From: a virus
Lineage: Duplodnaviria > Heunggongvirae > Uroviricota > Caudoviricetes
IMG/VR virus record: IMGVR_UViG_2671181136_000006
Strand: one strand, 5' to 3'
Length of the DNA stretch: 64,000 bases
The notes under the pieces were generated by a model. The model made no database searches. It saw only the letters and a list, made by a program, of their open reading frames with translations, and was not told the origin of the DNA. The position numbers and the translations under genes were made by a program. This document shows positions 1 through 20,599 of the stretch, one piece after another (the stretch's first letter is position 1; each line of letters starts with the position of its first letter).

Positions 1-150
1 ACTAAGTGAGGCCTATAGTGCTTAACTTACTTTTCAAAATCGTGCCGCCTATGTTCGCAATCATCGAAGCGATCATTGAGTACGTCAACCAGCGCCCATA
101 ATGCTAGTTGTTACCGGCCCCATCCAAATGGGGCCATTTTATTGTATTGA

Positions 151-783
151 CTACATACTTTCTGATCTAATTGAGTTGTTCACTGCTCTGGCAATCTTCT
201 CCCGCAATTGCTGCGCTCCGTGGTACTGAACCGCAATATCCCGCAACTCGTTCACCAGTTCTCTAATCTGGTGATCTTTAAGCTCATTATTTGGGTGATG
301 GGTAACAACTCTGGTTAATTCACCCTTGTCTTTTGCTCTTACGTATGCAGCTCTTGTGCATTCGACCCATGTATTACCGCCTACATTAACTTCGTAGATT
401 AGGCTGGACTTATCTGTCAATTCGGAACAAATACGGGCCGTGGTCTGGCAACTAGAGCATTCGCAGTTATCGCGGAAACCGTGATCTACCGGTCGAGAAA
501 GAGGTTTAACTTTTTCATCCAACTTCATCACAGCATCGTGATAAGCGTTCCAGCCGTCATCTTTACCAAGTTGATAAATCTCTGAAGGCTCCATGTAGTC
601 TATATCGCAACCTTCTTCATCCGATCTATCTGGTCGCTTCCCTGGTAATCGCTCATAAAAACGATTTCTGTCTCGACGTTCGGCTCTCAGAGCTAACGCA
701 AGAAGTTGCTCAAGCGAGGTATTTGCACCAGCAATAATTTCATTGAGAATATCTTCTGTGAGATCTTTCGCTACCGTGCTCAT
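151..783 (-). CDS. hypothetical protein
   Basis: 210-aa ORF in co-directional operon; no motif recognised. Confidence 0.35.
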   Translation of the reverse strand: MSTVAKDLTEDILNEIIAGANTSLEQLLALALRAERRDRNRFYERLPGKRPDRSDEEGCDIDYMEPSEIYQLGKDDGWNAYHDAVMKLDEKVKPLSRPVDHGFRDNCECSSCQTTARICSELTDKSSLIYEVNVGGNTWVECTRAAYVRAKDKGELTRVVTHHPNNELKDHQIRELVNELRDIAVQYHGAQQLREKIARAVNNSIRSESM

Positions 784-1163
784 TTATCTCTCTCAGTATG
801 TTGCGATGGCGTAAATTTGACGACATCAAATATTTTGGATGGCATCAACTTTATCCGCGAGCTTAGTTCGGCTCTTCTCTGTAATGCGGTTAATAATGTT
901 TTCGTTCTGACGCCTTCGTGTATCCTCATCCCTGGCACAAGAACTACATCGCAGGGGAGATGCTCAGGTGACAAATCATTTTGGGCATCGCTAATCAGTC
1001 GTGTAATCTCTCTTTCAAGCCGACCGCCTAGCTCTGTTTTAGTGCAATGTTCTGACCAATCACCAGCCTCAAGCAGCGCGAGAATGCTTAAAATATCGTC
1101 CAATAGATCAGTGGTATTATCGACTTCCTTCTGAAGCTCACCGGCTACTGATTTATGCATCAT
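780..1163 (-). CDS. hypothetical protein
   Basis: 127-aa ORF, 4-bp overlap with neighbours (translational coupling). Confidence 0.35.
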   Translation of the reverse strand: MMHKSVAGELQKEVDNTTDLLDDILSILALLEAGDWSEHCTKTELGGRLEREITRLISDAQNDLSPEHLPCDVVLVPGMRIHEGVRTKTLLTALQRRAELSSRIKLMPSKIFDVVKFTPSQHTERDK

Positions 1164-1798
1164 TCGTCATCCTCATCACAGAATGAAAGTAGTGGGTTAG
1201 TCATTCGCCCTACCTGAGTAGCGTAGCCACGCCGACAGAGATTGCGCAGCACACTGTATATTTCGAACATCTCGGTTCGTTCACCGCCAACATCAAGCTC
1301 AGATGCTATAGCGTGACATTCAGTCGCGAGAGCCGATATTTTCTGAAATAACTCTGCTTTATTCACTGTTCGACTCCTGCGGCGTTCTGGTAGTGGCATC
1401 CAGTGTGTGACATTGCTAATCAGACCATATTCATTAGTTTGAGGATGGTTGCCGTTATCGTCTCCGTATTTAAGACTCTCCATAAAGCCATAATGCCTAT
1501 CACCATTAACGCTCACAAAGCCGTAATAAGCAGGTATAACGCCGATCTCACACATAACCAGTAAAGGAAAACTAGTTCTCCAATTTAGCTCGCCAATTAC
1601 AGGCATTCGCTCACTACAGCTTATCCAACCATCCTTAGATGCGGCTGTATTGGCATAGGCCTTACGGTGCTTCTGTAGCTCTGCTGCAATCGCTCTCACG
1701 ACTTCAACTGGTGCCCTTGCAGCAAACTCAATGTTGGTGATCAGCTCATTAAGATATTTCTCGCTTGGGTAGCATTTCTTATTGTTAACGGTGGTCAT
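1160..1798 (-). CDS. hypothetical phage protein (possible DUF551-like C-terminus)
   Basis: 212 aa; C-terminal THWMPLPE-type motif recalled from DUF551 phage proteins. Confidence 0.35.
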   Translation of the reverse strand: MTTVNNKKCYPSEKYLNELITNIEFAARAPVEVVRAIAAELQKHRKAYANTAASKDGWISCSERMPVIGELNWRTSFPLLVMCEIGVIPAYYGFVSVNGDRHYGFMESLKYGDDNGNHPQTNEYGLISNVTHWMPLPERRRSRTVNKAELFQKISALATECHAIASELDVGGERTEMFEIYSVLRNLCRRGYATQVGRMTNPLLSFCDEDDE

Positions 1799-1983
1799 TA
1801 GGCAGCTCTCTCAACAACAAGCAATTCGTCGTAGTCATAATCAGTTTCGGAACCATCCGTACCGAACAGAGTCACTTTGTCATTTTCCATCCAAAAAGAT
1901 TTAACCGCACATTGTTGACCTTTAGATGTTATGAGCACATCACCAGGGATTACGTCTTCAGCGCGAACCTCTAGTGTTCTCAT
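1798..1983 (-). CDS. small hypothetical protein
   Basis: 61-aa ORF abutting neighbours. Confidence 0.25.
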   Translation of the reverse strand: MRTLEVRAEDVIPGDVLITSKGQQCAVKSFWMENDKVTLFGTDGSETDYDYDELLVVERAA

Positions 1984-2402
1984 CGTGCTGCCCCCTCTTT
2001 GGTGAAAATGCCTGCTGCAATGCTGTTTATGATGCTGTCAGTGCATGGAGTAGAAAGCTGGGCATCTCCAGCAATTTTCATGACCTCAACATCCGCATAT
2101 CGAATACCGAGGTGTATCAGACCGGCTATACCTGACTTAAGTCGAACATTTTCCATAAACAGATCCTTTTCCCGCTGTTTAACGGTCTCCAGCTCAACAC
2201 GCAACTTCTCAATTTCGGCAGCCATGTAGTAACCAACCATAGCGAAAGTGGCGAAAGGGTAGTCCGAATCATCAGGAGATACGGCGGCCATTAGCAGACC
2301 ATCGTGCATGTTCTGGCTTCCATCAGTGATGGATACCGCATAAGAATCGCTGGTTTCCCGTTTATACAATACGACGACCGGGTTCTTGATTTTCTCTCTC
2401 AT
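1980..2402 (-). CDS. hypothetical protein
   Basis: 140-aa ORF. Confidence 0.35.
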   Translation of the reverse strand: MREKIKNPVVVLYKRETSDSYAVSITDGSQNMHDGLLMAAVSPDDSDYPFATFAMVGYYMAAEIEKLRVELETVKQREKDLFMENVRLKSGIAGLIHLGIRYADVEVMKIAGDAQLSTPCTDSIINSIAAGIFTKEGAAR

Positions 2403-2956
2403 TACGATGCCTCTAACTTGTCTAACTCTTTCAGCCCTTCACGTACCGCGTTCACAATGCGTTCCAGATACTGGTATTTCGGGTTTGGTACCGTTGGCCA
2501 GTCGGCATACCACGGATCATCACCAAAGAGATTCAGCAGTTTGTTACCGACGCCGAAACAACAGCAGCTTTCTTTTACGTCATCGGCGTTTTCCGCCTCG
2601 TCCCACATTTCACGAGCCAGTACGGCGTCGATTTCTCTCTCTCTTCGTAACTTTATGATTTCTGACTTCACGAAAAGCAGATTTGCATCGTTGTCATCGT
2701 CGACCGTGCTTCGCAGTTGAGAGTCGAAATAGCCGATTAGATACTCGTTGCTGACCCGCTTAATGAACGTCTGCACATCATCACCGCCCATAGCAAACCA
2801 AGCCGCAGTCCACGCTTTTCCGTAGCAGATGATGGTGATTCTTCCCTTACCAGGTTCGTAGTTTTCAATCATTACTCGAACCGGATCGAGGCGTTCCAGA
2901 TCCGTCAGCACAAAGGAAAGAACATCTATTTTTTCGACCTTCATGCAGCCTCCCAC
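2402..2956 (-). CDS. hypothetical protein
   Basis: 184-aa ORF. Confidence 0.35.
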   Translation of the reverse strand: MGGCMKVEKIDVLSFVLTDLERLDPVRVMIENYEPGKGRITIICYGKAWTAAWFAMGGDDVQTFIKRVSNEYLIGYFDSQLRSTVDDDNDANLLFVKSEIIKLRREREIDAVLAREMWDEAENADDVKESCCCFGVGNKLLNLFGDDPWYADWPTVPNPKYQYLERIVNAVREGLKELDKLEAS

Positions 2957-3582
2957 GCGCTCCAGATCAGCGATTTGTGTTTTTCATAACGTTTGATGTG
3001 TACCGGTTTCAGAAGCGCAATACCTTCAGTGACTTTCGCCATTGCGCTTAATAGCAACGGGTGTTCTATACCTATCCTCTCCATGTACTCGACAACATCA
3101 GCGTTGGCACCAATCTCTTTGCCGTGAAAGAGTACGTCCAGCATCAGTTCTTTCTCTGCGAGGTAGACAGCTGAAAACTCGGGATCGCGACTCACGATAG
3201 AAGAGGTATTGTCGAGCAGGTCAGCCAGCTTGATCATGCGCGTCTGCATGTCGAGATTTTGCTCCAGCTCCCGGACATTGATGATGAAACGCTGTATTCG
3301 ATTGCCGTCTTCTGGCCTTGCAATGTTGGTCAGAGCCTGAACCATTTCAGCTACGCGCTCACCGAAGTGATCACGAACCATCTCTATGGTTACATGGGTG
3401 TCTTCGACCACATCATGCAGAAGCGCCGCGATTTGCATCTCCACGGTTCCGTCATGCAATGCAACAATCTCTCGGACAGCAACCGGGTGGTTGATGTAGT
3501 CTTCGCCGGTATATTTTCTTTTCTGACCAACGCCACCATGAGCGCCAGCGGCGAACATATGAGCTTCGGAAATACTAGACAT
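2941..3582 (-). CDS. HD-domain phosphohydrolase, SpoT/Mesh1-like small alarmone ((p)ppGpp) hydrolase
   Basis: HPVAV...AALLHDVVEDT...IKLADLLDN motifs match the RelA/SpoT HD hydrolase domain; no synthetase domain; SD GGAG upstream of ATG at 3582. Confidence 0.7.
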   Translation of the reverse strand: MSSISEAHMFAAGAHGGVGQKRKYTGEDYINHPVAVREIVALHDGTVEMQIAALLHDVVEDTHVTIEMVRDHFGERVAEMVQALTNIARPEDGNRIQRFIINVRELEQNLDMQTRMIKLADLLDNTSSIVSRDPEFSAVYLAEKELMLDVLFHGKEIGANADVVEYMERIGIEHPLLLSAMAKVTEGIALLKPVHIKRYEKHKSLIWSAWEAA

Positions 3583-3701
3583 TCTTAACTCCGTTGTTTT
3601 CTAGTTGTGGTTATTTTCACAAATAAGAAAAGGTGGAAAACAATTTATTTAAGGCCACAACTTATGGCCTTTATTTATTCATGCCGAAGGATTTGTAGCG
3701 T

Positions 3702-4082
3702 CTAATTGCCGGATAAAATGGGGTGAGGTGCTTGCCAGTAGGCTCCACCGTTCCATGTGAACCCCATGCGAATAAGAGTGTTTATTGCGGCTTTGGTAGC
3801 CTCCGATTCGACACTGGCTTTTCGAAACTCTTGAACCTCTTTCGCCAACTTGTATGTAATTGTGCAGGGGACGATTGCAGCCCAGCCTTTCTCATGACTG
3901 TTAATGACCATCTGGATGTGACCATCCAGAATAGGTTGATTAGGCATGTTATTGAAAATGTCTGCCTGTTTTTGAATGTGAAGAAAAAGCCTTGCCAGCT
4001 CCATTTGCTCACTACGAGACAAGGGATTATCAAGAGGGCTTTTTGCAAAAGCGGCTATACGCTGTGCGTCAATGCCAAACAT
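3702..4082 (-). CDS. hypothetical protein
   Basis: 126-aa ORF. Confidence 0.35.
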   Translation of the reverse strand: MFGIDAQRIAAFAKSPLDNPLSRSEQMELARLFLHIQKQADIFNNMPNQPILDGHIQMVINSHEKGWAAIVPCTITYKLAKEVQEFRKASVESEATKAAINTLIRMGFTWNGGAYWQAPHPILSGN

Positions 4083-4786
4083 CAGCGCACCTCACCATCT
4101 TTATGGCTGGAGTTAACTTCCGCCATTAAATGTCTGACGTAATCGACAAGAGAGCCACCTGGTGGAATCTGGCATTCCTCAACTAACTGGAAGTAGATAT
4201 CCGCTGCATTACGTGTATTGCTACCCGCACATATTCTTTCTTCCCGAAGTGCATGAAGCTCGTTGATCAAACGGTCACACTCTCCGTTACGCTGATCCAC
4301 AACGGCCTCAAGCTCTGCGACGCGTTCACCTGGCGTCTTACCTTCTTTGCGTTGGATGGTAACGACGAAATCGCCAATTGCAGGGACGTTGTAATCCAGC
4401 TCAAGGTAGTTTTTGGCACCGCTGCGGACGAACTCACCCGCGAACATGGTGGCGAACATCGCAGAGGCCACTTCGCCGTTGAAAAGTGACTCCAGATCTA
4501 ACGGAGTCCCGGCAGCAAGAGCTTCTTTTGCTGTATCCATTGCATCCATGAACCGATCAAACTCACTAGCGCGCTTTTCCAGGTCTTTCCATTGCTCGCT
4601 CCAACGTTTGGCAACGAAGTCTATGAATGTTTTCGCGGATTCATCAAAATTCCCCTCAAACTTAACGATGCCTTTATCAATAATGATCTGGCCTACCGCA
4701 TCCTCTGCATAACCTTTCAATGTAAACTTGAAAGGAAAATCAGAATGGCCTGTGACGTTAAAATGCTCTAACTGGAGGTTGTTCAT
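4082..4786 (-). CDS. hypothetical protein
   Basis: 234-aa ORF; palindrome motif 4831-4848 upstream. Confidence 0.4.
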   Translation of the reverse strand: MNNLQLEHFNVTGHSDFPFKFTLKGYAEDAVGQIIIDKGIVKFEGNFDESAKTFIDFVAKRWSEQWKDLEKRASEFDRFMDAMDTAKEALAAGTPLDLESLFNGEVASAMFATMFAGEFVRSGAKNYLELDYNVPAIGDFVVTIQRKEGKTPGERVAELEAVVDQRNGECDRLINELHALREERICAGSNTRNAADIYFQLVEECQIPPGGSLVDYVRHLMAEVNSSHKDGEVR

Positions 4787-4847
4787 GTGTTTTTCTCTTA
4801 TCGTTTAGTAACTACATTCTTACACAAATTAGGTAAGTATTTACCTA

Positions 4848-6533
4848 TCATTTAACGCGTTTGAAAACGTATACGCTGACTGTGATCCCTGTGTCTTCAA
4901 ACTCGTTGGTAAACGACTTCCCTCTGGCATAAACGTAATTATCCATCGTCATCCAGTCCAGTATTGGCGCAGTGCCCGGCAATACTGCTACAAGACGCCC
5001 GCCGACTTTCAGATGCCCAAGCGCAGCCAGAGTGTGCTCTCTATGACGACCAAGCGAGTACGGCGGGTTCATAACGATTTTGTCGAACTGATAACCTGCG
5101 TTGTCCTCAGACCACTTTATGAAGTCGCAGCAAATCGTGTTCGTATACCCTTTTCCACGCAGGATATCAGCGAAGAGAGGTGCGATTTCTATGCAGGTAA
5201 CATCTTCCAGATCGGCGTTAATATAGGCCAGAAGATCCCCACGTCCGGCTTGAGGCTCCAGCAGCTTCTCACCAGGCTTCAATTCAGTGGCTCTGGCAAC
5301 GTACTCAGCAATCAAGCGTGGGGTAGGGTAGAACTGGTGTGATTTTGTATCCGGTATTAATCCGGTAGCCACAATCGTATTTAGCGTATGGACGATGTCA
5401 TACGGGAACTGCCAGTGTTTTTTCTCCTGCACGCCGCCAATGAAGCTCAGTGTGCGCTCAAGCTCTTCCACCTGCGACTTCTGGAGAGCTGAATCAGAGA
5501 AGTACCATACGCCTTTGTCTTTGCTCAATCGCCCGTCACGAAGCGCAGTGCGAACCGGCACGGAGATCGTCTTCTGGATTAACCCGAACTGCTTTGGTGC
5601 CCGTGTTTTTGGCGCGGTGCGACATGGCGCGGGGATTGCAGCAGGCATACTGTAAGCCAGCACCTCATTCAACTTCCAGGCCACGTCAGGATGTATTTCA
5701 AAGTGAACGTTGCCGTTCTTGAACATCTTCACGCGCATCAGATTTCCATCGACGTTCATCCAGTCACCGGTCTGGCAGTCGTTTGCCCGATACGCAGCTG
5801 ATAGCACCTCAGCAGTGCGGTTGATGGTAATAAATTCTTTGTGCGCGAAGAAATGAAGCAAGACACGCAGATCGTCGATGTAGTCCTCTTTGCGATAGTT
5901 CACGCTAACGCTGTCCCGCCAGAAATCAGAAATGCAGTCAGCGATTATCAGCCGCTCGCTGAAACCGTTTGTCTTATTTGTCTTGTGCGCAGGACTCAGC
6001 GCCTTAAACAAGCCATACACGCGCTCAGAGAGATATTTGTGCCTGTCATTCAGCAAATTAAGCATCGTGGGTATGACCGTTTCTGCTTTGAACTCCGGTA
6101 CACCAACGAACTCTTTAACCTTCATCTGGTAGCCGGTTCTGTCAGTTTTGATGACTTCCTGTTTGCCCTCTATAAACTGCTCGCGCCACTCATCTCGACG
6201 GGAAGCTGGCATGATCAGCAAAACGTTAGTCATGTCCGTGACCTTCCTCCAGTACTCGGCCCAAATATTCTGTTTCACCCATTCCAGATCGACTTTATCC
6301 AACCAACCTCGATTTAAACGCGAGCGATCTTCATCTGGTCGATGGTTTAGTCTCAGCAGGCGATTAATCATGTTGTGGCGTTCGTCGCCATAAACGAAGT
6401 CGTGTACCTGATACATGAAGGCGATCTCTTTCTCGCACTCGGCCACGATTTCGTGGATGACATTCATTTCCTGACGATAGTCGATAGCCGTGTTTGAGCT
6501 GGCATCGTCGATGATGGAAAGGGCTGTATTCAT
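4848..6533 (-). CDS. DNA N6-adenine methyltransferase with large uncharacterised N-terminal domain
   Basis: C-terminal third carries EPQAGRGDL (AdoMet-binding-like) and NPPY catalytic motif; about 330 aa N-terminal region without recognised motif. Confidence 0.65.
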   Translation of the reverse strand: MNTALSIIDDASSNTAIDYRQEMNVIHEIVAECEKEIAFMYQVHDFVYGDERHNMINRLLRLNHRPDEDRSRLNRGWLDKVDLEWVKQNIWAEYWRKVTDMTNVLLIMPASRRDEWREQFIEGKQEVIKTDRTGYQMKVKEFVGVPEFKAETVIPTMLNLLNDRHKYLSERVYGLFKALSPAHKTNKTNGFSERLIIADCISDFWRDSVSVNYRKEDYIDDLRVLLHFFAHKEFITINRTAEVLSAAYRANDCQTGDWMNVDGNLMRVKMFKNGNVHFEIHPDVAWKLNEVLAYSMPAAIPAPCRTAPKTRAPKQFGLIQKTISVPVRTALRDGRLSKDKGVWYFSDSALQKSQVEELERTLSFIGGVQEKKHWQFPYDIVHTLNTIVATGLIPDTKSHQFYPTPRLIAEYVARATELKPGEKLLEPQAGRGDLLAYINADLEDVTCIEIAPLFADILRGKGYTNTICCDFIKWSEDNAGYQFDKIVMNPPYSLGRHREHTLAALGHLKVGGRLVAVLPGTAPILDWMTMDNYVYARGKSFTNEFEDTGITVSVYVFKRVK

Positions 6534-6674
6534 AATTACACCATTAAATAATTTGTTTTCTGATTGGTGTAATTATCGCAAACTTGAAAAGGCATAAAAG
6601 CTGCATTCATAGGCGTTACAGCAGATTTAAGGCGTAAAAATGGGGGCTGTCGCCCCCTGTCGAATGGTGCTGTA

Positions 6675-7241
6675 TTAGAGTGCGTATTGCGTTTTGTGCG
6701 GCTGCTTATTCAAGTCATGGCGATGCGTAAGCTCCCGCATCATGTCTTCAAGGCGACTCTTTGTGTCGTCGAGCTGGTCGGCCATTGCACCTAAAAGCTG
6801 GCGAACGGCCATCGGATCGTCGCTGTTTAGTGATGGCATTTTAGAACCTGCTTTAGAAGACATAAGGTTGATTGCAGACATCAACATCGTTAGAGAGGAT
6901 TTAAGCCCGGCAATTTCACGATCTTTGCTGGCAATAATCGTCTCACTTTTGTTACCGTCATCAGTTTCTTGAGTCTCGCTCACCATATCCAAAGTCGCTT
7001 GCAACTTATCAGCTCTCTCTTTTTCAGCAAGGTAATGAACACCGAAATGGTGTGCCAAAGCTACAATCTGAGTTGGCTCTTCAAAGGTGGAATTAAAATT
7101 AAGTATTGTAAACAGTCTCTCAAATATGGAAACGTCTTCTATTCCTCGAAGAATGGCTAACATTTTGACCAGTTCATTAGCATCCATTTCTTCGAATAAG
7201 GCGTTTTGTTCATCAGCTATCGCTTTGCATTTCTTGCACAT
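6675..7241 (-). CDS. hypothetical protein
   Basis: 188-aa ORF with conserved upstream motif at 7261-7279. Confidence 0.4.
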   Translation of the reverse strand: MCKKCKAIADEQNALFEEMDANELVKMLAILRGIEDVSIFERLFTILNFNSTFEEPTQIVALAHHFGVHYLAEKERADKLQATLDMVSETQETDDGNKSETIIASKDREIAGLKSSLTMLMSAINLMSSKAGSKMPSLNSDDPMAVRQLLGAMADQLDDTKSRLEDMMRELTHRHDLNKQPHKTQYAL

Positions 7242-7538
7242 GTGTTTTTCCTAATACTTAAACAAGTTGTTTTCTTATTGGCTTTATTGTGATGTGGCAT
7301 AAAAGGGGAGCAAGCTAAACGTAAAGGTGCAAACTCTCTATTTCGGTCAACGAAACACAAGGGCCATTTGGCCCTTGTCATTAACACTTTGCTTTACGAA
7401 CTAACGGATAAGCGAAGTAGATCGCCAAACCAATGAGGACGCCATCAGAAATGACAGACATCATCTTTCCCGTAAAATCCACCAACACCGCCATCACCAG
7501 AAGAGCAATGACGATCACAAGCCGGAATCTCTCAAGCA

Positions 7539-7964
7539 TTAGAGATAAGCATCCAGTGACAACTGAAGCGCCTGGGCGATCTTTTTCAGTGCCTGCTCTT
7601 CTTGTTCACCAATGCCGTCCTGATCGGCAATATCAAGGCACAGACACAGAACATCGACCGCCTCTGGAGTACCCGCAATATCAGACAGCTCACGAATAGC
7701 CTGTGCATTAGCAGAACGAGGGGACGCTTCGTAACGAGCACGGATATTGGCGCTCATTTGGGCAATTTCACCAGCAAACGGAGAAAACGCAGGCAGAGCT
7801 GCAATTGTCTTCTCAAGAATGGCAATTTCTTTTGCGTCACATGTGCCGTCAGCATAGGAGATCATGTACGCGCCCCACACGGTGGCCTCAACCGCATCAC
7901 GGTTCTCCATTTTTTTGACTTCGATAACAGCTTTACGAGTTTTCTTTTTGAAGAAACCTAACAT
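7539..7964 (-). CDS. hypothetical protein, possible TerB-like domain
   Basis: 141 aa; repeated YADG / DxDG...EE helical pattern reminiscent of TerB; weak. Confidence 0.3.
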   Translation of the reverse strand: MLGFFKKKTRKAVIEVKKMENRDAVEATVWGAYMISYADGTCDAKEIAILEKTIAALPAFSPFAGEIAQMSANIRARYEASPRSANAQAIRELSDIAGTPEAVDVLCLCLDIADQDGIGEQEEQALKKIAQALQLSLDAYL

Positions 7965-8255
7965 GTGCTTTCCTTTTATTATTTGTCAAAACAAGTTGTT
8001 TTCTAATTACATAAATAGCTTACGCAGAGATGGTCAATGCATATGCACTAACAGCCGTCAGAAATAACCAAGTACCGAACCAACTGGAAAAACAAAAATC
8101 CCAACTACACGAGCCAAGGTCATGCCAGCCTGAAACTGGAGATCGCCAGAGCAAACAAGTTTTATAATGTTCGATACCCAACCGGCGGCCATAAGGGCAA
8201 GAATTGCCAGCCAAATTTTTCCAAAGTGATTTGAAAACCAGTTCATACAACCGCC

Positions 8256-10487: not shown

Positions 10488-11081
10488 CTAAGCAGCCTTC
10501 TTTGATGGTCTTTTTTTCCTGATCACATTCGCAGGATCATACCCTCCCAGACTTTTCATGACGTCCAAAGGGATCTTGCTTATAGAGTGCCCAGCGTCCT
10601 GACAGAATCCTCGAAAAACAACGAGCATACTGCCACCTGGGTTGATGTTTACTTCTACCTGACCCAGATTTACGTCAGGCTCGACAAACGCTACGCGGCC
10701 ACCAGACAGAATAATCGTCTCATTCGCACACTCTGTTGCACGCTCATACCACTTTGTATCTAGGGATTGAGGAATTAGCATCACTGTTGTAACTCCGCGA
10801 GCCTGCTCACGTATAGCCGCATCAATCCAGGGGTAGATTTTGGAGTAGGGTGGATTGAGGAAGGCAATTGTACCTGGCTGTCCCCATTCAGATTTCAAAG
10901 CATCACGCTCAACGCCTATGAAATTAGGCAGCTTTGCATTGTCCTTGTTGCAGGCAACGTCAACATCAAATGTCACTCCAAGATAACGTTGAATGGCAGA
11001 AAACAGCCAGTCAGGTGTTCTCCAGAGGTCACGAAGAGAGTTGTCGCGCTTTCGCTGTTTGATTTTTTCGGCTGCAATCAT
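10488..11081 (-). CDS. dam: Dam-family phage DNA N6-adenine methyltransferase
   Basis: 197 aa; NPPY motif and overall pattern of the small phage Dam MTase family. Confidence 0.7.
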   Translation of the reverse strand: MIAAEKIKQRKRDNSLRDLWRTPDWLFSAIQRYLGVTFDVDVACNKDNAKLPNFIGVERDALKSEWGQPGTIAFLNPPYSKIYPWIDAAIREQARGVTTVMLIPQSLDTKWYERATECANETIILSGGRVAFVEPDVNLGQVEVNINPGGSMLVVFRGFCQDAGHSISKIPLDVMKSLGGYDPANVIRKKRPSKKAA

Positions 11082-13280: not shown

Positions 13281-13925
13281 CTAATGAACGGTCACTCGGC
13301 CACAGAACCGGTTTTCTATCTTTTCTACAGCGTTATCTAGCATTCTCATCACTGATCTGGCTCTTGCTTCAACTGTGCGATACCGGTTGGAAACGACGAA
13401 GGTTTGCAGATCTCCCCTTTGCGGATGCAGGTGAATTTTTGTCAGTTCCCCGCACATCAACGCATCAATACGAGCGACATACAGACGGTCTAATGATGCT
13501 CGTTGTGACCGCAAGTAATCTCGCTCTGAGAGAGCGACCCCCGGGCGTAGGCCAGCAATGGCGTTAAAGTTTGAAATAGCAGTTTTGTGGCAAAACTTTT
13601 CGATATCGAGGGCTAACTCAATACACCGATCTTCATTTGTATGGCCGACCAAATCCAACGTGTAGGCCATAACATCAGCAGGTGTGCGATCGATAACAAA
13701 GCCTTCAGCACCACGCGTAAGTAGCTCTATATGCTTTGCTATTTCCATTTGAATCTGAAGCCGCTCATATAGAGGCATAGAATCACCTACTCGAACACCG
13801 AGGCGGCTCATCAAACTTCCGACACCAGCATCCACGTAAGGGATTCCGTAATGTTTGTCGATATATTTAGCCAGGGTTGTTTTCCCACTGCCCTGAGCAC
13901 CAGTGATCCCAATCCGGTAATCCAT
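13281..13925 (-). CDS. P-loop nucleotide kinase, probable deoxynucleoside monophosphate kinase
   Basis: Walker A GAQGSGKTT near N-terminus; position in nucleotide-metabolism operon. Confidence 0.5.
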   Translation of the reverse strand: MDYRIGITGAQGSGKTTLAKYIDKHYGIPYVDAGVGSLMSRLGVRVGDSMPLYERLQIQMEIAKHIELLTRGAEGFVIDRTPADVMAYTLDLVGHTNEDRCIELALDIEKFCHKTAISNFNAIAGLRPGVALSERDYLRSQRASLDRLYVARIDALMCGELTKIHLHPQRGDLQTFVVSNRYRTVEARARSVMRMLDNAVEKIENRFCGRVTVH

Positions 13926-14401
13926 TACGACCTTCTGTATACGATCTGCGAAAAGCCAGGCTCTTCCTCGCTGGCTCGTTGGGTATAAGCTGTTTCAACA
14001 GGCACAAAGCCTAAATTACGCATCATGCTTGCCGGGAAGAATGCATCGGCGTTTGGCACATCAACGCCGATGTGGGAGAGCCAAATCTCTTCAACATGCG
14101 GCATGAATAGCGAGTAAATTTGTTCCCCGCCAATCACCCACACAGGCTCTGGTAATCGCAACACATCATCCACACCAGCAGGGTAGAATCCATTTGGTAC
14201 AAAGCCATGAGAGCGCGTCAAAACGAGGTTATGACGCTCTGGAAGAGGGCGTTTGAGACTTTCCATCGTTTTACGCCCCATAACGACAGTGGCGTTTTTG
14301 GTGAGTCTCTTAAATAGCTTCAGATCGGTAGAACAACGCCAGGGCAGTTCGTTCGCTATGCCGATCTCATAGTTACGGCCAACAGCAGCTATCATCTTCA
14401 T
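13925..14401 (-). CDS. folA: dihydrofolate reductase
   Basis: MIAAVGRN.EIG..N.LPW....DLK.FK..T....V.MGRKT.ESL..PLP.R.N.VL.R pattern matching DHFR. Confidence 0.85.
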   Translation of the reverse strand: MKMIAAVGRNYEIGIANELPWRCSTDLKLFKRLTKNATVVMGRKTMESLKRPLPERHNLVLTRSHGFVPNGFYPAGVDDVLRLPEPVWVIGGEQIYSLFMPHVEEIWLSHIGVDVPNADAFFPASMMRNLGFVPVETAYTQRASEEEPGFSQIVYRRS

Positions 14402-14811
14402 TTGCTCACCTCATAGATGACCGGTCTATGATGAGAGTCAGCTAAAGCGGCACGGAGTCGAGGATCGTGCACCAGCGCAGCGATAAGCAGATCGCCTTTA
14501 TGCTCCGCTAATGTGCGCTTAATATGCTTCTCATAACTGGTGCTATTCGGTACGAGGTGAAGCCAGTCGTAATCAACACCAAAATCTTTCAGCCATCGTT
14601 TAGTGGGCGCTTCAAGAGTTTCAGAGCGGCTACTGATAAGCACCACTTCAGCCCCTGAGCGAGCAAAACCACGCAACATACGGCTGGTGGGGAAAATGAG
14701 TTCATCACCGGCAATGAATTGGCCTGCATCCGAGTCAGATACAGATTTACGATGGCTGGTATTTGCCAGCACACCTTCAATTTCGCATAAGACATACATA
14801 CCTCTTGCCAT
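14398..14811 (-). CDS. hypothetical protein, possible HAD-like 5'-deoxynucleotidase
   Basis: start moved to ATG at 14811 immediately after thyA stop; IEGVLAN resembles DxDGVLxD of NT5C-type nucleotidases with substitutions; weak. Confidence 0.3.
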   Translation of the reverse strand: MARGMYVLCEIEGVLANTSHRKSVSDSDAGQFIAGDELIFPTSRMLRGFARSGAEVVLISSRSETLEAPTKRWLKDFGVDYDWLHLVPNSTSYEKHIKRTLAEHKGDLLIAALVHDPRLRAALADSHHRPVIYEVSK

Positions 14812-14812
14812 A

Positions 14813-15943
14813 TCACACCGCCACTGGAACCTTGATCCACGGTAGAGGGGCATAGCCAAGAATAAGAATCTCGTCCCATTTGAAATCATCCAGCTCAGAC
14901 CATTCATTAGGGAATATAACGACCGGATCTGAATGCTCTGGAGCCTGTCGTTGCATTAGCTCACACACACCTTCCATGTGGTTGTTGTACAAATGCACGT
15001 CAAAGCCAAAATGCACAAATGCACCGGCCATGTGACCCGTAATCTTCGCGAGAAAATGAGTGAGAATGCCATAGCCAGCAATATTGAATGGCATACCAAC
15101 AAAAGTGTCTACGCTACGCTGTACGAGGCAGGAGTTGAGGATGCGTTTGGGGATTCCAAGTTCATCCAGTTCAGCTTCAGTAACACTGCCGTCCATCTCC
15201 AGATCGTATAGCATCTTGGTGTAGATAGACTCGTAACCGAGGCGACTGTGTTGAAGACCAATGTCAGTTGCCATCGTTAAACGGGTTTCAAAATCCAGTT
15301 CACGACTCCACAAAGAGAAGACAAAGTGGCAAGGTGGCAGTTTCATATCCTCAAGCTCGCCTACGTTCCATGCGTTAAGCATGATGCGACGATCGGTAGG
15401 GTTCGTGCGCAGTGTATCGACAATACGCTGTAGCTGATCGATTTCACGGGACAGCACTACGCGATCTTCACTGATACCCAGGTATCCCTCGACTTTGTAC
15501 CCGCGTTCACGGAAAGTAGCGATCTTGCTCAGATATTCACTATGGCTCACGATGCGGGTATCTTCCCATCGACGCCACTGCTTACCGTAAACCGGCCCCA
15601 AATCGCCATTCTCATCGGCCCATGCATCCCAAATCTTAACGCCGTTATCCTTGAGAAATTGGATGTTGCCCGTGCCTTTCAGATACCACTCAAGTTCGAC
15701 AAGCAGTGGCTTAAGATTTACCGCCTTTCCAGAAATAAGCGGCACAGTCCCACCAGTAAGCATGTAGTAAGAGGGAACGTAACAGGTGCTTAAAGTACCA
15801 GTGCCTGTGCGATCATCAGCCTGCACGCCGCTTTTAAGCACCGTCTCAATAACTTTTGCATACGATGCGTTTGTTACCTGACCGTTCGTATGCTCACGAT
15901 TCAAAAGGAGTGACACAAAAACCTCACAAAGATAAGTAACCAC
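14813..15943 (-). CDS. thyA: thymidylate synthase (ThyA type) with two insertions
   Basis: DRTGTGTLS, GPVYGKQWR, MKLPPCH (catalytic Cys), GMPFNIAGY, HLYNNH motifs; GTG start in track, true start uncertain. Confidence 0.9.
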   Translation of the reverse strand: MVTYLCEVFVSLLLNREHTNGQVTNASYAKVIETVLKSGVQADDRTGTGTLSTCYVPSYYMLTGGTVPLISGKAVNLKPLLVELEWYLKGTGNIQFLKDNGVKIWDAWADENGDLGPVYGKQWRRWEDTRIVSHSEYLSKIATFRERGYKVEGYLGISEDRVVLSREIDQLQRIVDTLRTNPTDRRIMLNAWNVGELEDMKLPPCHFVFSLWSRELDFETRLTMATDIGLQHSRLGYESIYTKMLYDLEMDGSVTEAELDELGIPKRILNSCLVQRSVDTFVGMPFNIAGYGILTHFLAKITGHMAGAFVHFGFDVHLYNNHMEGVCELMQRQAPEHSDPVVIFPNEWSELDDFKWDEILILGYAPLPWIKVPVAV

Positions 15944-15993
15944 TTATTCATTGCGTGAGTTTACATTTATTGAGAGAACAAGACCAGACAGAT

Positions 15994-16025
15994 AAAAAAA
16001 TGGTGGCCATAGGCCACCAAAAACG
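15994..16025 (-). terminator. rho-independent terminator
   Basis: GGTGGCCATAGGCCACC hairpin flanked by A-run/T-run. Confidence 0.55.
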
Positions 16026-16087
16026 AATAGTTGTTTCAGAAATTTAACGCGCCAGCGCAATATACACAGATAGATAACTACCTACAA

Positions 16088-16957
16088 TTATTTTTTGATC
16101 ATTCCGTACATTGCTGAGGCTTTAGCTTGCTCAACAAAGGAGGATAAATCGACATCACTATAGGTTGGAGACTTCAGAATCTTTCCATCGGAAATTCGAA
16201 AACCGATCATCTTATCGGTGCCATCAGCATGGCGAAATCCCAGGTCAGAAGAGTCGTATTTGCAGTTGGCCACAGCATGGCGACGCTCTTCGGCATCTGC
16301 AGGCCATAATTTTGTCATGTTGGACCGATGAATTTCGCCAACCAGCTCGACGACATTGATACCGAGAAAATCAGCCAGTCGATAAGTCATCATGCACGCC
16401 ACATAGATTTTGTTCATTACACGGCGCAGTTCCTGAATCAGCTCAGAATCCTTAACAGTCTTCTTCTCAAGTTTATCTGCCAGCTCTTCGAGCATACATG
16501 ACGCCTCACGAGCTTCCTGAAATGGCATTGCCATATCATCGAAAACAGTGTTACCAGGCACAAAAATTGTCTGCATAAAGCGATCAATGCTCTGTTCCTG
16601 CGTGTAATAAGTCATGCCGGTAGAAATACCACCTTTGATGGCGACCATCGTACCAACACCAACGTATAAAAAGTCGGCCATTGCATCCAGCAGTTGCTCA
16701 ATATCCCCATTCATTGCGGCTGGAATACCTTCCACTACAGCTTCTTCATGAATCAGGCTTGCACGGAGACGAAGCAGCTCTGGTGTCGGCATAACGCGTC
16801 TCGGATGCTGGAAGAGTTCATGAAACTGATCGACCATCTTGTAAATACTTTCAGTGGCTACACCATGGCCTTCATGCAACTCATATGGTTCTGGCTTAAA
16901 TCCAATGAGTCGATCGGTGGCAAGTTTCAGGTGGTCAGTCAGTTTGGTAAAGTTCAT
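16088..16957 (-). CDS. putative MazG-like nucleotide pyrophosphohydrolase (tandem all-alpha NTP-PPase)
   Basis: EE..VE......D.EQLLDAMADFLY and LEELADKLE...ELVGEI...SNMTKL patterns resemble MazG/HisE-type domains; not verified. Confidence 0.4.
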   Translation of the reverse strand: MNFTKLTDHLKLATDRLIGFKPEPYELHEGHGVATESIYKMVDQFHELFQHPRRVMPTPELLRLRASLIHEEAVVEGIPAAMNGDIEQLLDAMADFLYVGVGTMVAIKGGISTGMTYYTQEQSIDRFMQTIFVPGNTVFDDMAMPFQEAREASCMLEELADKLEKKTVKDSELIQELRRVMNKIYVACMMTYRLADFLGINVVELVGEIHRSNMTKLWPADAEERRHAVANCKYDSSDLGFRHADGTDKMIGFRISDGKILKSPTYSDVDLSSFVEQAKASAMYGMIKK

Positions 16958-17034
16958 GCTAGTTTTGCTCCTTCTTAATTCTTGTGATCCATTGTGGCCC
17001 AGCGTTGCCAGGCCACATAATGCTTTGTATCGGT

Positions 17035-18177
17035 TTACAGGTCTGCAAACTGGCTTAGAGAAGCCTTATCCACGGTAGAATCGATCTGACCTACCAGATA
17101 TGTGCTTTGCTCTGCCTCTTGTGGTGCAATTTGCAGTGTGTCGGTTAACAACCACTTGTTCATCCAGACCAGCGGATCAGTGGTAACTTCTGGAAATAAA
17201 GCCTTCAGGCCAAGACGATTCATAGCCAGATTGGTGCGGTATTTTACATAGGTTTTGAGAATATCCGCGTTTAAACCAATCATCGAACCGTCTTTGAAGA
17301 GATAGTCTGCCCAGTTCATTTCTTGTTCGGCGACTGATTTCATGGTGTCGTAAATGACGTTTTCTTCATCAGCAGCAATCTCTTTCCACAATAAACCTTC
17401 GCGACCGGTACGCATGAAGCGGATCATGCGTTCAGTTCCTTCGCAATGCAGAGCTTCATCACGGGCAATAAAGCGCATAATTTTGGTGTTACCCTCAAGC
17501 AACTTCCGTTCACCAAAGGCAAACGTACATGCAAAACTTACGTAGAAACGGATCGCCTCAAGCGCATTAATGGACACCAACGTGCGGAAAAGCTGACGAT
17601 GCAAAGGGTATGGCTCCCAGCCATATTCATTTACGTACAGACGCTCAAATTCCTTCTCACCTAACGACTGGCGCTCGCAGGTCATCCCATAAAGCCTGTC
17701 ATATTCAGCAGAGATACTGATCGCTCGGTTGATGATTTCTTCATCCGTAACAATACCGTCAAAAACAATGCTCGGATCGTCCACCATGCCACGAATAATG
17801 TGGGTGTAGCTGCGGCTATGGATAGTCTCAGAGAAAGACCACGTTTCAACCCACGTTTCCAGTTCAGGAATAGAGATAAGCGGCAGCAGCGTTGCATTTG
17901 GACTACGTCCCTGAACTGAATCGAGTAACGTTTGATAACGGAGATTGCTCAGAAAAATGTGACGTTCGTGGTCCCGCAGCTTCGTGTTGAAGTCGATACG
18001 ATCGCTCGAAATATCAACTTCTTCCGGCCGCCAGAAGAAAGACAATTGACGTTCAATCAACTTTTCAAAATCACGGTATTTTTGCTGATCGTAACGTGCC
18101 ACGTTGACAGATTGTCCGAGGAACATAGGCTCTTTGGTTGCATCATTAGCACCCAAACGGAACGTTGAATATGACAT
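17035..18177 (-). CDS. nrdB: ribonucleotide reductase class Ia beta subunit
   Basis: 380 aa; di-iron ligand pattern ([11 protein letters not shown] in CEG...) typical of NrdB. Confidence 0.95.
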
Positions 18178-18283
18178 GTGTTTTTCCTTTTTCTTTTTTG
18201 GTGCGTTTAAACAAGTTGTTATCTTATGTGTTTAAACAAGGCTTACAAATCAAAGAGAAGGTGGGGATATCCCCCACCATATG

Positions 18284-20599
18284 TCAGATTTTGCAGGCTC
18301 CGTCGCACTCATCTTCTGGCTCGACGGCTACAGCTTGCGCCAGTGGATTCTGCGGTTCGTCGTCATCACGCTTTCCTGCACCATCTCTGGTGTTGTGGTA
18401 GTAAAGCGTTTTAACTCCCATCTTGTAGGCGAGAAGCAAATCTGACAGTAGCGTCATCATTGGGACTTTATCGCCTTCAAAGCGAGAAGGGTCATAGTTG
18501 GTATTGGCTGAAATAGCCTGGTCAAAGAACTTCTGGATGATCGCCACCTTTGTCAGATAGCCGCGGTTGTCCGGCATATCCCACAGGTATTCATACTGTT
18601 CCTTCAGTTTTTCAAACTCAGGCACGACCATCTTAACGATGCCGTCCTTAGAAGATTTCACCGACACCGGGCCACGAGGCGGTTCGATGCCGTTGGTGGA
18701 ATTAGTGATCTGGCTGGAAGTCTCGCATGGCATTTGTGCCGTCAGTGTGGAGTTGCGAAGGCCGTATTTTGCAATACGTTCACGCAGTTCTTCCCACGGC
18801 ATCTTTAACTCAAAGTTGGTTTCGCCACTTTCGTCTAATGAAGAACGGTAATGGTCGATCGGCAACTGACCAATTGCGTACTTGGTCTGCTCAAACCAGT
18901 CACACTCACCTTTTGCTTCAGCAAGTCGGCAGCTGGCATCAAGAAGGTAATACTGGATAGCTTCGAATGTTTCATGCACCAGTTTATTGCCAGCGGTATC
19001 AGAATAACGAACGCCATTCTTTGCCAGGTAATAAGCAAAGTTGGTTACACCAATTCCCAAGCTACGACGAGCTTTGGCAGGCACTTCGGCTGCCTCCATC
19101 GGATAGTCTTGATAATCCAGTAACGAATCCAGTGCAGCAACGGCATAGAACGCCACCTCTTTAAGAGACTCCAGTGAACGGATGGCTCCGAGGTTAAAAG
19201 CGGATAAAGTGCATAGCGCGATCTCACCGTTCGGGTCGTCGGTAAATGCCAGTGGACGGGTGGGTAGGGTGATCTCCATACACAGGTTTGACTGGCGGAC
19301 AGGTGCAAGAGCAGGAATGAAAGCGCCATGCTCATTAATATGATCGACGTTCGCAATATAAATTCGGCCCGTGGACGCTCGTTCCTGCATCAGAGATGAG
19401 AACAGCTCAATGGCAGGTACTGACTTCTTGCGAATTGAATCATCGGCTTCGTATTTATGGTACAGCTTTTCAAACAGCTCCTGGTCTGTGAAGAAGGCTT
19501 CGTACATATCAGGCACATCATGCGGGCTGAACAGAGTGATGTTCTCGCTTCTGACGAGTCGACGGTACATTAGACGGTTACTCATGACGCCGTAATCAAG
19601 ATGGCGAACGCGGTTTTCATCAATACCACGGTTATTTTTCACCACCAGCAGACTTTCAACTTCAAGATGCCAGATCGGGTAAAACGCTGTTGCTGCGCCA
19701 CCACGAACACCACCTTGCGAACAAGATTTAACAGCCGTCTGGAAATGCTTCAGGAATGGAATAACTCCGGTATGGGTGGCTTCACCATTGCGGATCTCGC
19801 TGCCCAGCGCACGGATACGGCCAAAACCAATACCAATTCCAGCACGACGTGAAACGTAGTCGATAATTGCGGCTGAAGCTGCACTAATCCCTTTCAGACT
19901 ATCGCCAGACTCAATCAGCACACAACTGGAGAACTGACGGGTTGGAGTACGGACGCCGGCCATGATTGGTGTGGGCAGAGACAGTTTGAACGTACTTGTA
20001 ACGTCATAGAAACCTTTGACCATCTCCATACGTGTTTTGCCAGCGCAGTCGTCTTCCCAATTCTGGAACAGACACATGCCTACCAGCATATAGATATGTT
20101 GCGGCCCCTCATGAATCTCACCAGTAACACGGTTTTGAACGAGGTATTTGCTTTGCAACTGCACCGTAGCTGCATAGCCAAAAAGATCGTCACGTTTAGG
20201 CTTAATGTAATTGCCGAGTTCTTCGATCTCTTCAAACGAATAATGTGTCAGCAAATCCTTGTCATAAACGCCCTTGTTAACGTTCTTGACAATGTGTTGG
20301 TAGAAGTTCGGATAGTCGTAACGACCGAAGGCATCTTTGCGGATTTTAAAAATGTTCAGGCGGGCAGCCACCTGTGAGTAATTTGGTGCTTCTGGTGAGA
20401 TCAAATCAGCGGCAGATTTAACCAAAGCCTCATGCAACTGGCTGGTGGTCATCCCATCAAAAATGCTGGCCGCAGCTCCCATTGCTACAGCGGATGCGCT
20501 TACACCACGAATGCCTTCTACGCCATACATTACGACGCGGTTGTATTTTTCTTCGGATAACGGCTCTGTTTGGCCGTTACGTTTTACGATGCTTATCAT
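18284..20599 (-). CDS. nrdA: ribonucleotide reductase class Ia alpha subunit
   Basis: 771 aa; N-terminal ATP-cone (VKRNG..E....K), catalytic-site motifs, C-terminal CxxC tail. Confidence 0.95.
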   Translation of the reverse strand: MISIVKRNGQTEPLSEEKYNRVVMYGVEGIRGVSASAVAMGAAASIFDGMTTSQLHEALVKSAADLISPEAPNYSQVAARLNIFKIRKDAFGRYDYPNFYQHIVKNVNKGVYDKDLLTHYSFEEIEELGNYIKPKRDDLFGYAATVQLQSKYLVQNRVTGEIHEGPQHIYMLVGMCLFQNWEDDCAGKTRMEMVKGFYDVTSTFKLSLPTPIMAGVRTPTRQFSSCVLIESGDSLKGISAASAAIIDYVSRRAGIGIGFGRIRALGSEIRNGEATHTGVIPFLKHFQTAVKSCSQGGVRGGAATAFYPIWHLEVESLLVVKNNRGIDENRVRHLDYGVMSNRLMYRRLVRSENITLFSPHDVPDMYEAFFTDQELFEKLYHKYEADDSIRKKSVPAIELFSSLMQERASTGRIYIANVDHINEHGAFIPALAPVRQSNLCMEITLPTRPLAFTDDPNGEIALCTLSAFNLGAIRSLESLKEVAFYAVAALDSLLDYQDYPMEAAEVPAKARRSLGIGVTNFAYYLAKNGVRYSDTAGNKLVHETFEAIQYYLLDASCRLAEAKGECDWFEQTKYAIGQLPIDHYRSSLDESGETNFELKMPWEELRERIAKYGLRNSTLTAQMPCETSSQITNSTNGIEPPRGPVSVKSSKDGIVKMVVPEFEKLKEQYEYLWDMPDNRGYLTKVAIIQKFFDQAISANTNYDPSRFEGDKVPMMTLLSDLLLAYKMGVKTLYYHNTRDGAGKRDDDEPQNPLAQAVAVEPEDECDGACKI

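Follow-up and report, generated by a model that had tools for sequence, protein, structure and literature searches.

We analysed a 64,000-nucleotide stretch of viral DNA (IMG/VR record IMGVR_UViG_2671181136_000006; hereafter the window), which is an SSU5/pHCM2-like phage-plasmid of Escherichia coli. The product of the gene at positions 2941-3582 is a real and intact SpoT-like member of the RelA/SpoT homologs (RSH) that consists of the hydrolase only, a small alarmone hydrolase (SAH), and the gene is a syntenic ortholog of SSU5_099, known as 'PaSpo-SSU5'. We assign a probability of about 0.85 to the view that this accessory gene, which lies in the early/accessory array of an SSU5-like phage-plasmid, encodes a functional SAH of the PaSpo type that relieves the arrest caused by toxic small alarmone synthetases (toxSAS). 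It should be noted that the finding as such is already known, since its family and subfamily as well as the direct ortholog have been described and experimentally tested. An earlier inspection of the letters and open reading frames (ORFs), referred to here as the sequence-only reading, had proposed a SpoT-like hydrolase encoded by a mobile element, and this proposal was supported by tests of profile, residues, fold and orthology. The gene and its ribosome-binding signal are as follows:

2941-3582, minus strand: SAH gene, a 213-aa coding sequence assigned to the PaSpo subfamily by orthology to SSU5_099 (ORF and translation, profiles, alignment, model)
3589-3592, minus strand: putative Shine-Dalgarno sequence GGAG, 6 nucleotides before the ATG at 3582-3580 (sequence reading)

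The ORF list and the translation delimit an ATG-to-stop ORF of 213 aa on the minus strand with exactly these coordinates, and the plus-strand translation of the same segment is broken by many stops. The coordinates and length given by the sequence-only reading, which named no strand, were therefore correct, and the three motifs that it had singled out are all present in the translation (HPVAV within NHPVAV at aa 31-36, AALLHDVVEDT at aa 52-62 and IKLADLLDN at aa 117-125). The sequence around the GGAG motif is kept in SSU5. Within the protein, the Pfam model HD_4 (PF13328) matched aa 8-135 with an E value of 1.2e-18 and a score of 67.8 bits, well above its cut-off of 27.2, and HD_4 and HD were the only Pfam models that passed their thresholds. 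The NCBIfam model TIGR00691 (spoT_relA) was matched with an E value of 1.4e-24 over positions 1-123 of its 687 only, which correspond to the hydrolase part, and phrog_990, 'metal-dependent phosphohydrolase', was matched with an E value of 2.9e-55. A sequence search of the PDB returned 22 matches with E values down to 1.7e-13, nearly all of them to entries named SpoT, Rel, MESH1 or SAH, the few others carrying uninformative names. Judged from these scores, the similarity lies far beyond chance. No synthetase, TGS or ACT domain was found in the 213-aa protein by the Pfam and NCBIfam profile scans, so that the earlier view of a hydrolase without a synthetase domain holds for both the Pfam result and the long-RSH models.

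The residues of the active site are all present. R22, H32, H56-D57, E60-D61, D121 and N125 align to R24, H35, H61-D62, E65-D66, D122 and N126 of human MESH1 (3NR1), which means that the metal-binding set H...HD...D (H32, H56-D57 and D121), the catalytic pair E60-D61 and the substrate-positioning residues R22 and N125 are all in place. The roles of the MESH1 residues in metal binding, catalysis and substrate positioning were reportedly described by Sun et al. in 2010. The sequence-only reading had allowed for the HD-motif residues turning out not to be conserved upon proper alignment. This was not the case, as R22, H32, H56, E60, D61, D121 and N125 are invariant across 71 aligned homologs, at least 90% of which also have D57.

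An AlphaFold2 model computed from the same 71-homolog alignment (pLDDT 97.2, pTM 0.93) comprises 12 helices, and the modelled fold is that of an all-helical RSH hydrolase. When this model was compared with the PDB by Foldseek, the best 50 matches were all RSH hydrolase domains, headed by MESH1 (3nr1_A; target-normalised TM 0.83, rmsd 3.2) and followed by the Pseudomonas aeruginosa SAH, Corynebacterium glutamicum RelH, the L. levettii SAH and the hydrolase domains of Rel and SpoT proteins. MESH1, the P. aeruginosa SAH (6YVC), C. glutamicum RelH (7QOD), the L. levettii SAH (7QOE) and the B. caccae (p)ppApp hydrolase (7SMG) have the same single-domain all-helical fold and the same active-site residues as the window SAH, with target-normalised TM values of 0.64-0.83 for the best chains. 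However, their identity to the window protein is only 21-28%, the latter exceeds their chains by about 20-70 residues, and it is encoded by a phage-plasmid, whereas MESH1 and the bacterial SAHs of solved structure are chromosomal. A C-terminal extension of roughly 35-40 residues beyond the SAH homologs of ~175 aa was modelled as helices and is common to other phage-plasmid forms of SAH. Among the long RSHs, the best PDB sequence matches were Acinetobacter baumannii SpoT (7QPS/7QPR) and Mycobacterium tuberculosis Rel (5XNX), with E values of about 1e-13. The motifs HD1-HD6, a concept for RSH hydrolases cited in PMC9765508, are common to the long-RSH hydrolase domain and the window SAH, but the latter does not have the synthetase, TGS and ACT domains of the long proteins and, therefore, contains none of their regulatory domains.

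Evidence for function comes from the SSU5 ortholog. The window SAH and SSU5_099 (YP_006906731) are 87% identical over 213 of 213 residues without gaps. The two proteins thus have the same length, their catalytic residues are identical, and they are carried by the same type of SSU5-like phage-plasmid element. Their neighbourhoods also largely agree, in that a downstream gene with an overlapping start and nearby genes for DUF4942 and phrog_8364 proteins are present in both. The two proteins differ by 27 substitutions, mostly at aa 139-209 in the C-terminal third. Further differences concern the host, which is E. coli for the window and Salmonella for SSU5, and the upstream array, which in SSU5 contains an extra Eaa gene (SSU5_097). 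Since the SSU5 protein was classed by Jimmy et al. 2020 (PMC7229694) with the PaSpo SAHs, a subfamily attributed to Atkinson 2011 and Jimmy 2020, the sequence of the window protein places it in this subfamily by orthology to a member classified by these authors. Proteins identical to the window SAH are already present in RefSeq, where they are named 'HD domain-containing protein'.

Jimmy et al. tested SSU5 PaSpo as a 'stand-alone phage-encoded SAH' and found that, in E. coli, it counteracts the toxicity of each of the five toxSAS examined, namely CapRel, PhRel, PhRel2, FaRel and FaRel2 (PMC7229694). The rescue experiment suggested in the sequence-only reading, in which the hydrolase is expressed in cells producing a toxic alarmone synthetase, has therefore already been performed on the SSU5 ortholog. 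The same authors stated the corollary that incoming phages may bypass alarmone-mediated defence by encoding hydrolases, and mentioned earlier links between phage infection and the build-up of alarmones (PMC7229694). SSU5 PaSpo has since become a routine laboratory tool for the over-expression of CapRel-SJ46, PhRel2 and FaRel2, for which its leaky expression is enough. As to the substrates, characterised bacterial SAHs cleave ppGpp and pppGpp with Mn2+ (PMC9765508). On the other hand, the preprint of Kurata et al. identified FaRel2, PhRel, PhRel2 and CapRel as enzymes pyrophosphorylating tRNA at its 3' CCA end and not as alarmone makers, and it showed that MESH1 and ATfaRel reverse tRNA pyrophosphorylation by FaRel2 in vitro, with aminoacylation being restored. 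Four of the five toxSAS that are neutralised by PaSpo thus act on tRNA, and the relevant substrate may therefore be tRNA rather than a nucleotide. Later statements that PaSpo 'removes the tRNA modification' rest on Jimmy et al. and Kurata et al. The two hydrolases used in the tRNA work are instructive for comparison. MESH1 also neutralises toxSAS in addition to removing the pyrophosphate from tRNA. ATfaRel is a hydrolase-only RSH like the window SAH and neutralises all toxSAS tested (PMC7229694), but it belongs to another SAH subfamily and is encoded beside its toxSAS; a scan of 39 window ORFs found no such partner for the window gene. Altogether, the suggestion in the sequence-only reading that the protein counters alarmone-based growth arrest or defence fits the toxSAS neutralisation by the 87%-identical ortholog, which was already in print; its alarmone part agrees less well with the action of most of these toxins on the tRNA CCA end.

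By analogy with the family, H32, H56, D57 and D121 would hold a Mn2+ ion, the E60-D61 pair would activate a water molecule, and R22 and N125 would position the substrate. An SAH of this kind would split off a pyrophosphate bound as an ester to the 3'-OH of a ribose. Its candidate substrates are (p)ppGpp and (p)ppApp as well as tRNA with a 3'-pyrophosphorylated CCA end. If the protein behaves as its SSU5 ortholog does, removal of these products would undo the arrest of growth or translation by CapRel, PhRel, PhRel2, FaRel and FaRel2. Such toxSAS may serve as effectors of abortive infection or superinfection exclusion, and the SAH would then let the element replicate in hosts that are equipped with these defences. 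For the allele of the window, both the substrate range and a counter-defence role in infection are what we infer from this comparison.

The gene is accessory. It was detected in 44 of 5,426 complete E. coli genomes (near full length in 36), always on plasmids, as compared to 251 of the same genomes (187 near full length) for the neighbouring DUF4942 backbone gene. Accordingly, about 18% of the E. coli SSU5-like elements have the SAH gene, and it is absent from every SSU5-like phage record of E. coli. In phage Cyrano (locus 2711-3460) the SAH gene and the ORF overlapping it are both missing, and the upstream intergenic region runs straight into a homolog of the window ORF at 1980-2402. Truncated or deleted alleles are common as well: a truncation to 139 aa (P0011) was found on 139 contigs, two alleles (P0010 and P0012) are deletion chimeras from which the catalytic half is missing, and one (P0009) is a D57G variant. 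In the SSU5-like plasmid pCAV1099-111 of Klebsiella oxytoca (locus 2244-4922), the gene for a 52%-identical SAH immediately precedes the DUF4942 gene and itself overlaps a different small ORF upstream. This shows that SAH genes occupy more than one position in the accessory region, which could have come about either by independent acquisition or by rearrangement.

Several observations weigh against a functional hydrolase that relieves toxSAS arrest. Firstly, the only activity that we found published for SSU5 PaSpo is neutralisation in vivo, direct removal of the tRNA pyrophosphate having been shown for MESH1 and ATfaRel. Secondly, our literature search found no report of a phage-encoded SAH that improves plating on a toxSAS-bearing host. 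Thirdly, a promoter scan of positions 2300-7400 gave nothing above chance, with no coding-strand candidate immediately before the SAH gene. Lastly, about four fifths of the E. coli SSU5-like elements are devoid of the gene, and it is often truncated or deleted in others. This frequent absence and decay implies that the gene is dispensable and that any benefit it confers is conditional.

A more specific proposal takes this conditionality into account. It holds that the SAH is a conditionally selected counter-defence enzyme whose native substrate during infection is tRNA whose 3' CCA end has been pyrophosphorylated by fused toxin-antitoxin immunity proteins of the CapRel type, and that its patchy presence tracks those enterobacterial hosts that have toxSAS. 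We regard this as a tentative proposal that is somewhat more apt to be wrong than right. The idea of tRNA repair as counter-defence is in print, and the literature search found no demonstration of it in an infection.

Among the alternatives, the best surviving one is that the SAH mainly lowers the (p)ppGpp level of the host, thereby damping the RelA/SpoT stringent response and keeping the rates of transcription, translation and DNA synthesis high for phage or plasmid replication, with the effect on toxSAS being secondary. Both the full set of (p)ppGpp-hydrolase residues and the fold are kept, which is consistent with this idea, as are the Mn2+-dependent cleavage of ppGpp and pppGpp by characterised bacterial SAHs (PMC9765508) and the links between phage infection and alarmone accumulation mentioned by Jimmy et al. 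(PMC7229694). The element also has a large module for replication and nucleotide supply, comprising nrdAB, thyA, dihydrofolate reductase (DHFR), a RecA-like protein, a gp32-like single-stranded DNA-binding protein (SSB) and a primase-like protein, plus a DNA ligase in a near-identical plasmid. However, E. coli already has SpoT, roughly 80% of its SSU5-like elements manage without the gene, and the only published phenotypes of the ortholog are the neutralisation of toxSAS, four out of five of which act on tRNA. As the principal role of the protein, damping of the stringent response is therefore rather unlikely in our opinion, but it overlaps with relief of toxSAS arrest and the two may hold together.

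It is also conceivable that the SAH acts mainly on a metabolite other than an alarmone, for instance as a MESH1-like NADPH phosphatase, which would make it a metabolic auxiliary gene. The closest solved structures include MESH1 with bound NADPH and PAPS, and one bacterial SAH cleaves NADPH as well as alarmones (PMC9765508). Nonetheless, the in-cell activity of the ortholog is the reversal of toxSAS toxicity, no nucleotide-cofactor context was found around the SAH gene, and support for this view does not extend beyond similarity of fold; we consider it very improbable. Least probable of all is a role as type IV antitoxin to a toxSAS encoded by the same element, in the way that C. marina ATfaRel serves FaRel: SAHs are known as antitoxins in toxSAS operons (PMC7229694) and the ATGA overlap with the downstream neighbour resembles a toxin-antitoxin arrangement, but the ORFs flanking the SAH gene have neither a RelA_SpoT synthetase domain nor any other Pfam match, the downstream gene is widely found where there is no SAH, just as there are SAH homologs that lack it, and Jimmy et al. 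(PMC7229694) treated the SSU5 protein as stand-alone. Indeed, no RelA_SpoT synthetase domain (PF04607) was found in the 39 window ORFs scanned with Pfam, and the annotation of a near-identical plasmid, over 1-89 kb, lists no product with a toxSAS-type name. With no toxSAS next to the SAH gene, among the scanned ORFs or in the plasmid annotation, the toxin-antitoxin module was rejected.

The sequences that flank the SAH gene contain two features:

2402-2944, minus strand: 180-aa ORF, phrog_3451 (function not assigned), the ATG of which overlaps the SAH stop codon (ATGA)
3651-3671, no strand assigned: candidate hairpin AAGGCCA-N7-TGGCCTT, 7 bp, GC-rich (terminator-like scan, with a hit on the plus strand only; conservation)

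The 180-aa ORF is 87% identical to SSU5_100 and matches phrog_3451 with an E value of 6.8e-89; it has no Pfam match. The RefSeq annotation shows the same overlap with the SAH gene. As the ATG of this ORF overlaps the SAH stop codon, the two genes are probably co-transcribed and translationally coupled. Their joint absence from Cyrano had suggested a functional cassette of two genes. This idea was rejected because each of them occurs elsewhere without the other: the 180-aa family is found without SAH on plasmids of Enterobacter, Providencia, Yersinia, Pseudomonas and Vibrio, and the SAH homologs of Klebsiella pCAV1099-111 and phage PDP46 have other neighbours. We therefore treat the pairing as lineage-specific synteny and claim no functional link.

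The 180-aa ORF matches the C-terminal part of phrog_3451 (profile positions 105-282 of 287), and the N-terminus of a 234-aa ORF at 4082-4786 on the minus strand matches the N-terminal part (13-101). On Enterobacter plasmids (locus L008, 2189-3013), a single ORF of 274 aa replaces the intervening genes. These arrangements suggest either a mosaic gene that was split or recombined, or the joint deletion of the Eaa-like and SAH genes. Members of the phrog_3451 family are found widely, on plasmids of enterobacteria, Pseudomonas and Vibrio.

Upstream of the SAH gene, an intergenic region of 119 nucleotides (3583-3701) separates it from an Eaa-like gene with its stop at 3702. The hairpin and the following ~60 nucleotides are kept in SSU5 and also in Cyrano, which has no SAH. 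The conservation between SSU5 and Cyrano ends about 25 nucleotides before the SAH start codon, where sequences with and without SAH diverge, and this point therefore marks the left boundary of the insertion or deletion. The hairpin may represent a terminator, an attenuator or an element of RNA stability, but the number of terminator-like matches in 2300-7400 was not above the expectation from shuffled sequences.

The carrier was recognised by its first 8 kb, which match SSU5-like phage-plasmids. Among the relatives of positions 1-8000 are the phages CMS-2020a, Cyrano and PhiR41_1 of Escherichia, phage SSU5 of Salmonella, and hundreds of non-mobilisable plasmids of ~105-115 kb from Escherichia, Klebsiella, Enterobacter, Salmonella and Citrobacter. 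Pfam searches with the window ORFs detected nrdAB, thymidylate synthase, DHFR, Dam, RNase H, the RecA-like protein, the gp32-like SSB, the primase-like protein and a Rep3-type initiator. The RefSeq annotation of the near-identical plasmid adds a DNA ligase and an integrase inside the stretch matching the window; its terminase, portal, capsid and tail genes lie beyond this stretch.

The leftward array that includes the SAH gene also encodes a 561-aa DUF4942 protein (4848-6533, minus strand), for which the SSU5 annotation gives DNA methyltransferase, a Dam-family N6-adenine methyltransferase distinct from it (10488-11081, minus strand) and a TerB-family protein (7539-7964, minus strand). The DUF4942 and Dam methyltransferases may serve in anti-restriction, as would suit a neighbourhood of accessory or counter-defence genes. 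In the closest plasmids (99.1% identity; NZ_CP045278.1, NZ_LR890608.1 and NZ_CP113488.1), the region equivalent to window positions 1-8000 contains an ISEcp1-blaCTX-M-15 insertion of ~3 kb. No insertion of this type is present in the window itself. Judged by these sister elements, the accessory array is therefore also a landing site for resistance genes.

The sequence-only reading had further pointed to a MazG-like candidate at 16088-16957 as possibly acting on the same nucleotides as the SAH. This ORF is located about 12.5 kb from the SAH gene, between nrdA/nrdB and thyA/DHFR in a minus-strand nucleotide-supply cluster that spans 13281-20599:

18284-20599, minus strand: nrdA (Pfam scan)
17035-18177, minus strand: nrdB (Pfam scan)
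16088-16957, minus strand: MazG-like/PRA-PH pyrophosphohydrolase, 289 aa (PRA-PH PF01503, phrog_671)
14813-15943, minus strand: thymidylate synthase, thyA (Pfam scan)
14398-14907, minus strand: small ORF with a below-threshold HAD/PNKP-phosphatase-like match (Pfam scan)
13925-14401, minus strand: DHFR (Pfam scan)
13281-13925, minus strand: AAA_28 P-loop protein (Pfam scan)

The ORF and its MazG-like domain are real, as PRA-PH (PF01503) was matched at aa 42-106 with 35.6 bits against a cut-off of 21.3, and phrog_671 ('nucleotide pyrophosphohydrolase') with an E value of 1.1e-47. Its PDB matches, to MazG-like NTP pyrophosphohydrolases of the DR2231 type, were marginal, with an E value of about 1e-3 for the whole sequence but no individual stretch above the cut-off, and an insertion of about 70 aa lies between the two halves matching DR2231, a dUTPase. 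The proposed link to alarmones found no support: the nrdAB-thyA-DHFR setting points to metabolism of the dNTP pool. Moreover, the one phage MazG tested for this idea, a cyanophage enzyme, is reported to be unable to hydrolyse magic-spot nucleotides (PMC6850273). On the basis of the genomic context, the nearest relatives and this cyanophage enzyme, a second alarmone hydrolase at this position was rejected.

As a discovery, the SAH gene carries little weight, because it is the E. coli phage-plasmid ortholog of a protein that has been tested experimentally. The new details are minor and comprise its accessory status, its truncation and deletion, the finding of no toxSAS partner and a downstream pairing that is not kept in other lineages. 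Natural variants with and without the gene, such as the window element and Cyrano, respectively, are convenient material for a comparison of infections. SSU5-like phage-plasmids are common in clinical Enterobacteriaceae, where they carry resistance genes, and a variably present hydrolase that disarms CapRel-type toxSAS could influence which strains they enter or persist in. If the tentative tRNA-directed proposal is true, the SAH would be an anti-defence factor of the RNA-repair type that sets the host range of elements spreading resistance genes such as blaCTX-M-15.

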